A stretch of DNA of 64,000 bases from Candidatus Polarisedimenticolaceae bacterium (GCA_036275915.1 DASUCV010000015.1:12394-76393); one strand, 5' to 3'. Positions 43,965-52,953 are shown, numbered from the stretch's first letter. Notes: generated from the letters alone by a model not told the origin. A program made the numbers and translations.

Positions 43965-44651
<687 letters not shown>

Positions 44652-44655
44652 GGGA

Positions 44656-44725
44656 AGTTCACAGTTTACAGTTCACGGTCGACAGTTTCAGAACTGTGAA
44701 CTGTTGACTGTCGACTGTGAACTCT
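44656..44725. repeat. Heptamer array: ~5 direct AGTTCAC-like units followed by ~5 inverted units (GAACTGT), forming a ~70-bp imperfect palindrome
   Basis: Read directly: AGTTCAC AGTTTAC AGTTCAC GGTCGAC AGTTTCA | GAACTGT GAACTGT TGACTGT CGACTGT GAACTCT. It lies in the divergent promoter region between the ABC operon and the VWA gene. Confidence 0.85.
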
Positions 44726-44784
44726 CCGCAAGAAGCGTCCCCTTCGGGGATGCGGAGCCCACACCCTCGCGGTAACTTCCCACA

Positions 44785-49262: not shown

Positions 49263-50213
49263 CTAGACCTTGAGCGCCGCGCCCTTGAGCTTCTCCGGCC
49301 AGTTGCCGGTCAGCTCGAGCGGCTTCGGATTCTCGGCGCGGTCGATGAGCATCTCGGCGACGGTCTTCAAGACCCAGTCGAAGTTCTCCCGGCCGACCGA
49401 GAACAGGTCGCAGTCCGGCGCCGGGTTCATGAAGTCGATCGCGATCGGGACCCCGTCGCGAACGGCGAATTCGATCGTGTTGAGGTCGTACCCGAGGGCG
49501 CGGCAGAGCGCGAGAGCGTCGGCCTCGATCCGCCGCAGGAGCTTCGGCTCGGTGGGCGGCGCGTCCTTGACGTACCGGTTCTCGAAGGGGGCCTTCGGGT
49601 CGTAGCGCATGACCCGCACGTGGCGCCGGCCCACGCCATAGCACCGGTAGTACTCGGCGAAGGCGATCGCCTCCTGGGCCATCATCGAGAGCGACCGCGT
49701 CTGGTCGTACGCCTCGAAGAACTCCTTGCGATCGTCGACCTTGTAGACGTCCCGCCAGCCGCCGCCGTCGGCCGGCTTCATGTAGATCGGAAAATCGAGA
49801 TAAGAGAAGACCGCCTCCCAATCGACCGGGAACGCCAGGTTGGAGAAGGACTCGGCCTTCGTGTTGGGCGGGTGCTGCTTGTGCGGCAGGAGCACCGTCC
49901 GGGGCACCGCGACGCCGCACGCCTGGGCGACGACGTTATTGAAGTACTTGTCGTCGCAGCTCCACCAGAACGGGTTGTTGACGACCTGGACGCCGCTCGC
50001 GGCGGCCTGCTTGAGATAGGTCCGGTAGAACGGGACCTCGTGGCTGATCCGGTCGAGGATGACGTCGTAGTCGGCGGGGATGTCCTGGACGAGCGGTCCG
50101 ACGCGGCAGGCCTCGGCGACGACCTTGCCGGCACCCCTCTTGTTGATCTCGTCGACGAGCGCGGGCGGGAACGAGCGTTCCTGACCGAAGAGCAGTCCGA
50201 TCTTCTTGGGCAA
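49263..50213 (-). CDS. ATP-grasp family ligase (RimK/glutathione-synthetase-like fold), 316 aa
   Basis: Features FPIYMKPADGGGWRDVYKV (Gly-rich loop region), EYYRCYGVG, and NTIEFAVRDGVPIAIDFMNPAPD (Mg/ATP-binding end of the ATP-grasp). Confidence 0.85.
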   Translation of the reverse strand: MPKKIGLLFGQERSFPPALVDEINKRGAGKVVAEACRVGPLVQDIPADYDVILDRISHEVPFYRTYLKQAAASGVQVVNNPFWWSCDDKYFNNVVAQACGVAVPRTVLLPHKQHPPNTKAESFSNLAFPVDWEAVFSYLDFPIYMKPADGGGWRDVYKVDDRKEFFEAYDQTRSLSMMAQEAIAFAEYYRCYGVGRRHVRVMRYDPKAPFENRYVKDAPPTEPKLLRRIEADALALCRALGYDLNTIEFAVRDGVPIAIDFMNPAPDCDLFSVGRENFDWVLKTVAEMLIDRAENPKPLELTGNWPEKLKGAALKV

Positions 50214-50308
50214 TGCGAAGGTCTCCCGTAGAATGGCCGATCACTGTAGCCGAACCTCCGTCCCGCCGTAAAGGCGGCGGGGGGACGAACCGGGGGACCT
50301 GAAGCACG

Positions 50309-51019
50309 ATGCATCGCGAATATCACCGCTGGCACTCGCCCTCGCTCGGGCGCGACATGGAGCTGCTCTGGTACGGAAACTGGGGGCGGCCCCTCCTCGC
50401 CTTCCCCACCTCGCTCGGGAGCTGCTCGCAGAATGAGGACAACGGCCTCATCGGCGCCCTGGCCGACAAGATCGAGGGCGGCGAGCTCCAGATCTGCTGC
50501 GTCGACGCGATCGACTCCGAGTGCTGGTACAACGACAACGCCCACCCGGGATGGAAGATCCACCGGTACATGCAATACGACCGGTATCTCACGACCGAGG
50601 TCGTCCCTCTCATCCACAAGAAGGCCGAGCGCGACGACCTCATGACCTTCGGCGCCTCCTTCGGCGGCTATCACGCCATGAACTTCGCAGGGCGCCATCC
50701 CGAGCTCGTCTCGCGCGTCATCTCGTTCTCGGGGATCTACGGCATTCACCGCTTCCTCCACGGCTTCTGGAACGACGACTGCTATTTCAACTGCCCCGAC
50801 GCCTACTACCCGAACCTGCCGCTCGACCAGGTCGACCGCATGCGCCACATCGGCTTCGTCGTCGCGACCGGCGAGCAGGACCATCTCGTCCAGGAGAACC
50901 GCTGGTTCTCCGAGATGCTGCGCGGGAAGGGATTGAACGTGTACGCCGAATTCTGGCCCGGCGTCTTCGGCCACGACTGGCCGTACTGGCGAGAGAACCT
51001 GAAGCGATTCGTGCCTTAG
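50309..51019 (+). CDS. Alpha/beta-hydrolase 'putative esterase' family protein (esterase D / enterochelin-esterase-type fold)
   Basis: Nucleophile elbow GASFGGYHA, with a downstream Asp/His context (GEQDH...; GHDW). 236 aa. Confidence 0.85.
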   Translation: MHREYHRWHSPSLGRDMELLWYGNWGRPLLAFPTSLGSCSQNEDNGLIGALADKIEGGELQICCVDAIDSECWYNDNAHPGWKIHRYMQYDRYLTTEVVPLIHKKAERDDLMTFGASFGGYHAMNFAGRHPELVSRVISFSGIYGIHRFLHGFWNDDCYFNCPDAYYPNLPLDQVDRMRHIGFVVATGEQDHLVQENRWFSEMLRGKGLNVYAEFWPGVFGHDWPYWRENLKRFVP

Positions 51020-51020
51020 A

Positions 51021-51055
51021 AGTTCACAGTTCACAGTTCACAGTTAACAGTTGGC
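51021..51055 (+). repeat. Tandem heptamer array (AGTTCAC)3-AGTTAAC-AGTTGGC immediately upstream of the ferritin RBS
   Basis: Read directly from the sequence, between the esterase stop (51017-51019) and GGAGG (51056-51060). The unit is the same as in the array at 44656-44725. Confidence 0.85.
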
Positions 51056-51067
51056 GGAGGCGAGGCG

Positions 51068-51580
51068 ATGACCGAGACGATGACCAAGGCGATCAACGAT
51101 CAGATCCACTCCGAGCTGTCGGCGTACTACAGCTATCTCGCGATGTCCGCGCACTGCGACCGTGCGGGCTTCCCCGGCGCCGCGAAGTGGCTCCGCCTCC
51201 AGAGCAGCGAGGAGCAGACGCACGCGATGAAGCTCCTCGACTTCCTCCTGGCGCGTCACGCGAAGGTCGGTCTCCGCGAGCTCGGCGCCCCGCGTATCGA
51301 GTACAAGTCGCTCCTCGACGTCTTCGAGACCGCCTTCAAGCAGGAGCAATCGGTCAGCGCCCAGATCGAGGCGCTCTACGAGCTCGCGTTCAAGGAGAAG
51401 GCGTACCCCGCCGTCGTCCAGCTCGAGTGGTTCCTCACCGAGCAGGTCGAGGAAGAGAAGACCTGCCGCGAGATCGTCGCCAAGCTCAAGATGGTCGGCG
51501 ACGACCCCGCGTCGCTCCTCGAGATCGACCGCGAGCTGGGCGCGCGGAGCATGGCGGGAGTCGGCAAGAACGCGGAATGA
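51068..51580 (+). CDS. ftn: Ferritin (non-haem, Ftn-type)
   Basis: The ferroxidase-centre ligand pattern of ferritin-like four-helix bundles is present: E..SAYYSYLAMS, SSEEQTHAMKL, QEQ, and EWFLTEQVEEE. Confidence 0.92.
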   Translation: MTETMTKAINDQIHSELSAYYSYLAMSAHCDRAGFPGAAKWLRLQSSEEQTHAMKLLDFLLARHAKVGLRELGAPRIEYKSLLDVFETAFKQEQSVSAQIEALYELAFKEKAYPAVVQLEWFLTEQVEEEKTCREIVAKLKMVGDDPASLLEIDRELGARSMAGVGKNAE

Positions 51581-51616
51581 TACGGGCGTAGAATCCGCGA
51601 ACGGAGGAGGAACGTC

Positions 51617-51823
51617 ATGAAGAAGCTCAAGCTCGTGGTCGGTGCCCTTGTGATCTTCGCCGCCGGCTGGGGCACGTGGTGTCTTGCCAAGCCGCCGGGC
51701 GGCGGTGGTGGCGGTGGCGGCACGCAGAACTGCAACCGCGTCGTCTGTGCCCAGTGCCCCGAAGGGTACGTGCTTCAGAAGGGTGCGTGGCCGGATTGCT
51801 GCGTCTGCGTTCCGGCCCCCTAG
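51617..51823 (+). CDS. Small exported Cys-rich peptide (68 aa precursor; Gly8 linker; 6 Cys in the last 29 residues)
   Basis: A strong RBS GGAGGAGG sits 6 nt before the ATG. Signal peptide MKKLKLVVGALVIFAAGWGTWCLA, then KPPGGGGGGGGTQNCNRVVCAQCPEGYVLQKGAWPDCCVCVPAP. A hairpin terminator follows directly. Confidence 0.7.
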   Translation: MKKLKLVVGALVIFAAGWGTWCLAKPPGGGGGGGGTQNCNRVVCAQCPEGYVLQKGAWPDCCVCVPAP

Positions 51824-51829
51824 ATTCAA

Positions 51830-51858
51830 GGAGAGGCACTCTCACGGAGTGCCTCTCC
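51830..51858. terminator. Hairpin terminator (12-bp stem), usable by both convergent transcripts
   Basis: GGAGAGGCACTC (51830-51841) / GAGTGCCTCTCC (51847-51858) with a 5-nt loop. There is no clear T-tract. Confidence 0.6.
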
Positions 51859-51935
51859 CCTTCCTCTCGCGTGGGAGCAGACCTCGGGGACGCGCGTGAC
51901 GCTGCGGTTCAGGCCGGAGGCGGAGTGACTCTCTT

Positions 51936-52841
51936 CTAGGATCCCGCCTTCTGCATCGCGGCGTGCATGACCGGCTCGGGGATCCCCGCCTTCTTCCACG
52001 CGACGAGATCGTCGGCCGAGAAGCCGGTCGCGATCGTCTGCTGCGACACATAGTCGACGAGGAGGTCGGTTCCCATCTGCTGCTTGCGCAGGCGCGTCAC
52101 GTCGGTGAGGAGCTGGGCCGGCGTCTTCGGAAGCGACGCCGGCGCGGTCTTGGAGTGGACGCGCGACGGCGGCACCGCCATCACCACCGGCTTGAGCGGC
52201 GCGGCAGACTTCGTCTCCGCGACGGCGCCGGCTTCCGGCTTCGAGGCGATCCAGGCTTCCTGAAGCTTGGAGTCGCTCATGAGAACCGCCCCGGCCTGCT
52301 GGAGCGCGTCCGAGAGGACCTCCTCGCAGTTCACCGGATTGCGCCAGCGGCCCTTCGTCTTGCCGTTCCCCATCGCGGTCCCTTCGGCGAAGACGTGCCC
52401 GGCGCGGTCGGCGAGCGTGTAGGGAAGCTGGACCTCGGCCGTGAAGGTCGAGTTCATGAACGAGTGCGTCTCCAAGACGTGGAACCGCGTCACGCGGATC
52501 GTGAGGACGAGGTTCGACTTGTCGTCGAAGAGGACGCCCCATGCGTTGAAGCGATCGGTGATCGTCGTCTTGAGGTAGCCGGGCAGATGGCCCGCGAAGC
52601 GGATGCGGAACGTGTCGTCGCCGCTGCCGGTGCCCTCGCCGATGATGTCGCGGCTGCCGACGGTCCGCGCGTCCTGCACGTCGAGCGCGATCGACTTGCC
52701 GGACACCCCTTCCTGGAGCGTCGCGTGCACGGCGCCGGGCTTCGTGGTCGGAATGAACTTGAGCGGGATGATGAGATCTTCACCGGCGAGAAGCGGGCTG
52801 ACCGCGACGACGGCGGCGATCGCGAAACGAATCGAGCGCAT
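51936..52841 (-). CDS. Hypothetical secreted protein (301 aa)
   Basis: The ATG at 52841 is preceded by GAAGGAGGGG. Signal peptide MRSIRFAIAAVVAVSPLLAG. No family recognised. Confidence 0.7.
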   Translation of the reverse strand: MRSIRFAIAAVVAVSPLLAGEDLIIPLKFIPTTKPGAVHATLQEGVSGKSIALDVQDARTVGSRDIIGEGTGSGDDTFRIRFAGHLPGYLKTTITDRFNAWGVLFDDKSNLVLTIRVTRFHVLETHSFMNSTFTAEVQLPYTLADRAGHVFAEGTAMGNGKTKGRWRNPVNCEEVLSDALQQAGAVLMSDSKLQEAWIASKPEAGAVAETKSAAPLKPVVMAVPPSRVHSKTAPASLPKTPAQLLTDVTRLRKQQMGTDLLVDYVSQQTIATGFSADDLVAWKKAGIPEPVMHAAMQKAGS

Positions 52842-52879
52842 GGGAACCCCTCCTTCTTCGAGGCCCCTGCGTTGCAAGA

Positions 52880-52953
52880 ATGGGGACATTCTGCTTTTTC
52901 CTTCAGAGCTTCTGCGGCGTGAAACTCCGAAGGAAAAAGCAGAATGTCCCCAT
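52880..52953. repeat. Perfect 25-bp-stem hairpin (GGGGACA-family palindromic element)
   Basis: ATGGGGACATTCTGCTTTTTCCTTC (52880-52904) and its exact reverse complement (52929-52953), with a 24-nt loop. It lies downstream of the debranching-enzyme gene. Confidence 0.8.

Follow-up and report, generated by a model that had tools for sequence, protein, structure and literature searches.

A stretch of 64,000 nucleotides (nt) from Candidatus Polarisedimenticolaceae bacterium (GCA_036275915.1, DASUCV010000015.1:12394-76393), called the window here, carries a 68-codon open reading frame (ORF) shortly behind a ferritin gene. This frame, termed the mini-gene below, is a real and strongly conserved gene. 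It belongs to a previously unannotated protein family with six invariant cysteines, which the sequence searches have so far placed only in Acidobacteriota (Polarisedimenticolia, Thermoanaerobaculia and others). The best explanation, to which we give a probability of roughly 0.6, is that the mini-gene is an autonomous gene whose product would be exported through the Sec pathway, released by signal peptidase and folded into a three-disulfide mini-protein, to serve as a rigid binding module either extracellularly or in the envelope. Positions are those of the whole window unless a relative's locus is named; such loci are written L0xx, and the family member proteins P00xx.

A protein search with the window product yielded 35 homologs with identities of 53-100%. 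All but two of these close homologs (33/35) are 65-69 aa long, the exceptions being a 102-aa call that is extended at the N-terminus and a truncated call of 55 aa. The exact match is the hypothetical protein HEX4825118.1 from a Candidatus Polarisedimenticolaceae metagenome-assembled genome (MAG; Acidobacteriota). Upon alignment of the close homologs, it was observed that the N-terminal third varies freely, while there is almost no change in L-A-K-P-P and in the tail NCNRVVCAQCPEGYVLQKGxWPDCCVCVPAP, with every one of the six tail cysteines invariant. Further, a codon-level comparison of eight loci revealed that synonymous change is saturated, the synonymous rate (dS) exceeding 1 in most pairs, and that the non-synonymous rate (dN) of the cysteine domain is 0.014-0.25. 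Between the window and its nearest relative, L015, this domain differs by 14 synonymous changes and a single non-synonymous one. Selection on the cysteine domain is strongly purifying and not diversifying.

The first-pass annotation, made from the window's sequence alone, had proposed a genuine gene, and named conservation of the downstream hairpin without the ORF as the observation that would overturn it. The reverse was found, as the ORF is kept among relatives and the hairpins are unrelated in sequence. The conserved ORF, the purifying pattern of substitution and the lack of conservation of the hairpin sequences thus together establish a protein gene, and the proposal now stands on about 390 relatives, invariant cysteines and a dN far below dS. 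The opposite idea, that the ORF is spurious and that only a terminator hairpin of the ferritin gene is functional, draws on the base composition, for DNA of 68% GC yields many long chance ORFs and several of them overlap this region. Such overlapping frames, in other phases and on the opposite strand, are an ordinary by-product of high GC. The idea is already refuted by the same conservation across some 390 clusters and by the non-conserved hairpins, and its probability is next to nil.

The family is compact. With widening profile searches the count rose to 319 and finally to 387 clusters (90% identity); their lengths are 57-108 aa, and no member has a Pfam domain. All members are named hypothetical, save for one evident mis-annotation, and a literature search on the family found nothing. 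The taxa, where named, are Polarisedimenticolaceae, Thermoanaerobaculia or Acidobacteriota; a weak partial match of 15 residues lies in a Deltaproteobacteria MAG contig. An exhaustive scan of 1.8 billion representative proteins with a hidden Markov model (HMM) returned 20 matches at E <= 1e-3, none longer than 134 aa bar one cysteine-free false positive, so that the domain is not found inside large proteins. Its signature is C-x2-V-x-C-x2-C-P-[ED]-G-x(8-10)-C-C-x-C-[VI]-P. Across 97 sequences C39, C44, C47, G50, C61, C62 and C64 are invariant, with V42 and P48 kept in more than 90%. The window protein has no match in Pfam or NCBIfam at E <= 1 (for Pfam, also at E <= 10). In 97 and a further 28 members, scanned with Pfam at E <= 10, the matches were sporadic and weak and concerned eukaryotic cysteine-rich modules, cEGF, RANK_CRD_2 and Tsg_N among them. 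A sequence-profile search of the PDB gave one chance-level TNFR match (E 9.6). The earlier remark that no known family has this pattern agrees with these searches.

Three architectures are found among the members. In the commonest, a signal peptide is followed directly by the domain. The second, to which the window protein belongs, places K-P-P and a run of Gly4-9 or Pro5-9 between the two. The third has two tandem domains behind a Sec or a lipoprotein signal (…LALCAC…), along with a low-complexity linker. No second copy of the mini-gene was found in the 64 kb window. At L039, a second small ORF (~701-943, +) lies directly 3' of the mini-gene and has a homologous signal peptide (…LGLVAIALGSTQLIAGKP…) followed by a different, eight-cysteine domain, GGGCPTGRPGCVCPQYMDPVVCPDGCSYYNPCAASCAGQHNC. 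A Kazal-like identity was considered for this domain from a by-eye likeness, and Pfam gave no match.

The start of the mini-gene lies 36 nt past the ferritin stop, behind a strong ribosome-binding site at 6-nt spacing, just as first described, and nearly all homologous loci have a GGAGG-type site ahead of the start codon. The ferritin itself has a ferritin-like domain in the Pfam scan (123 bits against a PF00210 threshold of 24.5); against the NCBIfam non-heme ferritin equivalog it scores 97.7 bits, under the 178 cutoff. Among 46 loci, only L015 and L020 share with the window a ferritin gene, preceded by an esterase gene, on the 5' side of the mini-gene; their ferritins are 94% and 89% identical to that of the window. 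Two further loci beyond the 46 are without ferritin. In the roughly 14 other neighbourhoods that were examined, no neighbour is held in common. The gene immediately upstream may be a DTW-domain gene, a sigma-70-type factor, a HAD hydrolase, a tRNA-Gly, a divergent LanB-like pair or divergent unknown genes, and for the two-domain lipoprotein forms it is a NUDIX gene. The gene downstream is usually convergent. A conserved partner gene was sought across the neighbourhoods and the locus collection, and none recurs.

As the ferritin adjacency is confined to close relatives that share the esterase gene as well, it amounts to simple local synteny. A placement of this sort does not imply a part in iron handling. 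The ferritin gene was accordingly discarded as an operon partner, adjacency not being kept across the family. The first-pass annotation had described the two genes as co-transcribed; a functional or co-transcriptional unit is not supported, given the restriction of the adjacency to three related loci and a -10-like box of the mini-gene's own in the gap. Nor does the proposed link to iron storage find support, given the unrelated neighbours in the 14 or so other neighbourhoods.

A few neighbours may be recorded in their own right. At L002 (1317-4777) and L017 (2074-5530), the mini-gene sits between a divergent LanB-like pair (Lant_dehydr_N, Lant_dehydr_C) and a histidine kinase, with a response regulator next in line at L002; the mini-proteins of these two loci also occur in L024 and L033. 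This arrangement is probably a matter of lineage synteny. At L035, the mini-gene start is preceded, at a distance of about 20 nt, by the end of a tRNA-Gly with anticodon CCC (1700-1775). A MerR-family gene lies convergent downstream in two otherwise unrelated contexts, L007 (6232-6798) and L043 (5186-6028), and in L043 its 3' end overlaps that of the mini-gene; this recurrence may be due to chance.

A repeat accompanies the ferritin gene. A 7-nt tandem array, AGTTCAC x4.6 (51021-51052), occupies the space from the esterase stop to the ferritin Shine-Dalgarno sequence, and the same heptad forms an imperfect palindrome of about 75 nt (44655-44730) between divergent genes, namely an ABC-transporter ATPase gene (43965-44651, -) and a gene for a 745-aa product (44785, +). 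With up to two mismatches (<= 2), CACAGTTCACAG occurs 9 times in the window against 1.45 expected, and 0/100 shuffles matched this. In L015 and L020 the array is likewise conserved ahead of ferritin, and no other mini-gene locus has it. An operator array and a small repeat element are both possible identities for it, and it does not resemble a classical Fur box.

The mini-gene appears to carry its own signals for expression. The window, L015 and L020 all have GGCGTA[GC]AAT in the spacer behind ferritin, while indels set their spacers apart elsewhere. The hexamer TA[ACGT]AAT occurs within 90 nt 5' of the start (<= 90 nt) in 10/25 distinct loci, as compared with 0.5% of control windows, and other loci have GATAAT- or TAATCT-like variants upstream of the mini-gene. 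A -35 hexamer upstream of TAGAAT was sought by eye, and none was convincing. The sequence GTASAAT has only two copies in the 64 kb, both 5' of plus-strand genes, the other copy preceding the esterase gene. That copy (GTAGAAT) falls within TGGGCA-16-TAGAAT at 50207-50234, the sole sigma-70-like promoter match between 50000 and 53000, 75 nt upstream of the esterase gene (50309). The box of the mini-gene is a putative promoter element, as judged from its recurrence. With no terminator in the 36-nt gap, read-through from ferritin is possible, but it would not be needed to transcribe the mini-gene.

A hairpin begins 6 nt past the mini-gene stop. Its presence right after the ORF had been seen at first pass, where 12 bp were counted; the stem has 13 pairs, of which 12 are Watson-Crick and one is G-U. 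It folds at -26.4 kcal/mol (z = -3.65), and 0/200 shuffles fold equally well. A simple terminator scan missed it because it has no T-run. A GC-rich hairpin follows the mini-gene at most homologous loci, though the sequences are unrelated and non-homologous. An Rfam scan of 50900-52000 returned nothing near any gathering score. The own promoter-like box, the ribosome-binding site and the terminator-like hairpin, found across contexts, thus make the mini-gene a self-contained unit. The convergent gene at 51936-52889 (-) encodes 317 aa with a weak match to Lipoprotein_16 (PF03923, E 5.7e-6, 26.6 vs 25 bits). Between its end and the hairpin lie 78 nt, and both genes could make use of the hairpin.

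The features of the locus are collected in Table 1.

Table 1. Features of the ferritin/mini-gene locus in the window
Feature	Position	Strand	Basis or remark
Non-heme ferritin coding sequence, 170 aa	51068..51580	+	Pfam PF00210, E 9e-36
-10-like box GGCGTAGAAT, putative; hexamer TAGAAT 51589-51594	51585..51594	+	In ferritin/mini-gene spacer
Shine-Dalgarno sequence GGAGGAGG	51603..51610	+	Read from sequence; 6 nt 5' of ATG 51617
Pre-protein coding sequence, 68 aa, stop included	51617..51823	+	ORF list, exact database match, purifying selection
Signal peptide, residues 1-24 (MKKLKLVVGALVIFAAGWGTWCLA)	51617..51688	+	Predicted signal peptidase I cut after Ala24
Mature N-terminal tail, K25-P-P + Gly8 (residues 25-35)	51689..51721	+	K25 and P27 invariant
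Six-cysteine domain, residues 36-68	51722..51820	+	C39-x4-C44-x2-C47-x13-C61-C62-x-C64, ending VPAP
Terminator-like hairpin, 13-bp stem + 3-nt loop, then CCCUUCCUCUC	51830..51858	+	Folding energy

The N-terminus of the product has the features of a Sec type I signal. Scored by simple rules for the n-, h- and c-regions and for the residues at -3 and -1, it shows three K/R within the first 7 residues and no acidic one, followed by a hydrophobic core and small residues at the two cleavage positions. Among the relatives, -1 is Ala in 35/35 and -3 is S, T, A, C or V in 35/35, although the signal sequence is otherwise variable; the Lys at +1 (K25) is also invariant. In the wider family, Ala-x-Ala sites stand 1-4 residues before the first Cys. 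The pre-protein is most likely cut after Ala24 by signal peptidase I, and the original proposal of a Sec-type signal cleaved after C-L-A has thereby gained the backing of an Ala-x-Ala-type site in all 35 relatives. A lipoprotein reading of the window product was set aside: C22 stands in a T-W-C context, no lipobox is formed, and 33/35 relatives have S, T, A or V in its place. Lipoboxes are present in the two-domain relatives P0057, P0066, P0090 and P0108.

The same N-terminus can be read in another manner, as the uncleaved helix of a signal-anchored small membrane protein. The run of Gly or Pro would then be a tether, and the periplasmic cysteine head would modulate a partner in the membrane in the way of MgrB. 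Such a reading is helped by the interchange of the Gly run with a Pro run, as befits a spacer, by the two-domain relatives, which are lipoproteins built of tether, low-complexity linker and domain, and by the 22-residue helix in the AlphaFold2 (AF2) model. Regulatory neighbours fit as well, since the mini-gene lies just upstream of the histidine kinase in L002 and L017, with a response regulator next in L002, and the convergent neighbour in L004 is a response regulator. However, the cleavage site is invariant in the relatives, the hydrophobic core before the c-region spans only about 13 residues, and in the single-domain relatives, which have no spacer, a clear cleavage site immediately precedes the domain. 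Kinase neighbours, moreover, occur in a minority of contexts. Permanent anchoring is, on these grounds, unlikely.

If the product is released, the predicted mature peptide of the window has 44 residues, and those of the relatives have 40-45 residues with a net charge of 0 to +2. The Gly8 run (residues 28-35) is encoded by mixed GGC/GGT codons and is not a pure repeat, as had been read at the outset; Tandem Repeats Finder detects only an imperfect 6-9-nt repeat at 51698-51721. In relatives the run has 4-9 residues, and P0030-P0035 have Pro5-9 instead, with a cysteine domain that is still 87-94% identical. Since GGN and CCN runs are reverse complements of each other, a small inversion could interconvert Gly and Pro runs. 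Of the tail first described as having 34 residues and six cysteines, the cysteine count holds and the length is corrected to 33 (T36-P68). The earlier cysteine description is further amended by C22, a seventh cysteine within the signal peptide that is not kept among relatives. The cysteine-rich tail emphasised at the time is indeed the conserved functional part of the protein.

An AF2 model was built from a 97-sequence alignment. It has a helix at residues 2-23, disorder at 28-34 (predicted local distance difference test, pLDDT, < 50) and a beta-hairpin formed by 51-57 and 60-66, the domain reaching a pLDDT of about 76-79. Sec export into an oxidising compartment usually yields disulfides. Six invariant cysteines in an exported domain of about 30 residues, and twelve in the tandem forms, point to intradomain pairing; by analogy with such domains, three disulfides around the beta-hairpin are most likely.

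The cysteines could be put to a different use, as an extracytoplasmic metal-binding peptide tied to iron storage, the role listed first in the first-pass annotation, would form a Cys4 site from Cys44/Cys47 and Cys61 (or 62)/Cys64. Two CxxC-type spacings, 13 residues apart, do flank the predicted hairpin, ferritin adjoins the mini-gene in three loci, and redox- or metal-related neighbours are scattered elsewhere (MerR twice, thioredoxin, glutathione S-transferase). But that adjacency is the synteny already described, the mini-gene has its own promoter-like box, and the heptad element ahead of ferritin is missing from the other mini-gene loci. There is no conserved His or Met, all six cysteines and not just four are invariant in a compartment that favours disulfides, and no rubredoxin or zinc-ribbon family is matched. 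A metal-binding role tied to iron storage is quite improbable.

A secreted antimicrobial peptide, toxin or cell-to-cell signal, bacteriocin-like or pheromone-like, must also be weighed, for the product is small, exported and rich in cysteine and has a strong ribosome-binding site. Spider knottin toxins and defensins figure among its weak Foldseek neighbours, the tandem ORF of L039 offers a second cysteine-rich product with a homologous signal peptide, and some loci lie beside a kinase/regulator pair or LanB-like genes. Yet no immunity, transporter or receptor gene recurs in the neighbourhoods examined, and the purifying selection on the domain gives no sign of an arms race. The mature peptide, further, is nearly neutral, and the Foldseek E values are all > 2. 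Such an activity is decidedly unlikely.

The preferred explanation of an autonomous, exported and released binding module would work as follows. The mini-gene would be expressed from its own -10-like box, with a near-perfect Shine-Dalgarno sequence and a strong hairpin at its end. The pre-protein would be exported by Sec and cut after Ala24 to give the 44-residue peptide, consisting of a flexible Lys-Pro-Pro-Gly8 tail and a domain of about 30 residues in which six cysteines would form three disulfides round the beta-hairpin. This domain would bind a conserved partner as a rigid unit, either extracellularly or in the periplasm; the strong purifying selection suggests that the partner is conserved and probably endogenous. 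Several points weigh against this explanation. The cleavage is predicted from simple rules only, and the confidence of the AF2 model is only moderate (mean pLDDT 71.6; predicted template modelling score, pTM, 0.34). A Foldseek search against the PDB gave no significant fold (best E 2.5), and the two CxxC-type spacings, C44-C47 and C61-C64, would also suit a Cys4 metal site. A Gly/Pro spacer has no obvious purpose on a freely released peptide and fits a tethered protein better. Lastly, the function is drawn from general knowledge of small exported cysteine-rich domains and not from a conserved partner gene.

What emerges is a compact and sharply conserved family of small proteins in a poorly studied, uncultured branch of Acidobacteriota, where it is listed only as hypothetical. 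The general kind, small exported cysteine-rich proteins, is known; the family itself is new and unannotated. With about 44 mature residues, the peptide is suited to chemical synthesis and nuclear magnetic resonance, by which the fold and the binding of metal or partner could be settled quickly. The locus also holds a caution of method: a spacing of 36 nt behind a well-known gene suggested an operon and a common function, but the relatives show no fixed neighbour and a promoter-like box that is the mini-gene's own.

Among known systems, SCIFF (TIGR03973) ranthipeptide precursors are also short peptides whose six cysteines are concentrated at the C-terminus. The SCIFF precursors lack a Sec signal, and a radical-SAM maturase is encoded next to them. 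The mini-protein, by contrast, has a Sec signal, and it shows no NCBIfam match at E <= 1, the SCIFF model included, and no radical-SAM gene adjoining it in the window or related loci. A ribosomally synthesized and post-translationally modified peptide (RiPP) could still be imagined, either SCIFF-like or a lanthipeptide matured by LanB-like neighbours, from the six cysteines in a short C-terminal core and the dehydratase pair at L002 and L017. However, Ser is missing from the core and Thr occurs only once, the LanB-like genes are found at these two loci only and are divergently oriented, and neither they nor a radical-SAM gene lie near the mini-gene in the window or most contexts. A RiPP precursor is rejected because the N-terminus is a hydrophobic signal peptide rather than a RiPP leader and no maturase is nearby; the idea is scarcely credible.

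MgrB-type regulators share with the mini-protein an N-terminal hydrophobic helix and a short periplasmic part with conserved cysteines, and some relatives adjoin a kinase gene. They differ in that there is no sequence similarity, that the conserved signal peptidase site predicts release and that a kinase gene is not a regular neighbour. A Cys4 site of the zinc-ribbon or rubredoxin type would fit the spacings C44-x2-C47 and C61-x2-C64, though Pfam gives no match to a zinc ribbon or rubredoxin.

Also comparable are the small disulfide-rich modules of animals, such as knottin toxins, SIBD-1, TNFR and laminin-EGF repeats, which are likewise secreted units of about 30 residues with a beta-hairpin core; three disulfides are expected here too. 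The weak Foldseek neighbours (spider knottins, SIBD-1, netrin LE, TNFR and defensins) are generic small disulfide-rich folds, but none comes below an E of 2 and no sequence family is matched. A knottin identity was dropped, the framework here being C-C-C-CC-C as against the knottin C-C-CC-C-C.

The cysteine layout resembles the C-terminal subdomain of VWC (PF00093) or chordin-like repeats, and this likeness was tested. The shared elements are C-x2-[VI]-x-C ... C ... CC-x(1-2)-C with Pro as the next residue, set in a short extracellular hairpin rich in disulfides, which may occur in tandem. For the test, five VWC domains were used, and Pfam verified all of them as VWC (E 1e-10 to 1e-16); hhalign of the family against these five gave a probability of 2.4%. 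One divergent member, P0039 (…CCPVCVPN), aligns to positions 29-57 of the 57-position VWC model with E 4.6e-4 and 20.9 bits, below the 27.6 threshold, and is the sole VWC match among 125 members scanned. The family differs in having six cysteines where VWC has ten, in its missing N-terminal subdomain, in its bacterial origin and in its stand-alone size of 57-108 aa. The window protein has no VWC match and does not have the ten-cysteine framework (CxxCxC ... CCxxC), and it was not assigned to VWC. Given the sub-threshold match of P0039 and the low hhalign value, the likeness is only a lead, and the resemblance may be convergent. It is a tentative and rather doubtful suggestion that this undescribed bacterial family truly corresponds in structure to the C-terminal half of the animal VWC / chordin-like repeat, or is even distantly related to it, its products being free-standing, autonomously promoted and binding a conserved envelope or extracellular target. 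If true, it would provide a bacterial example of a module thought to be animal-specific.

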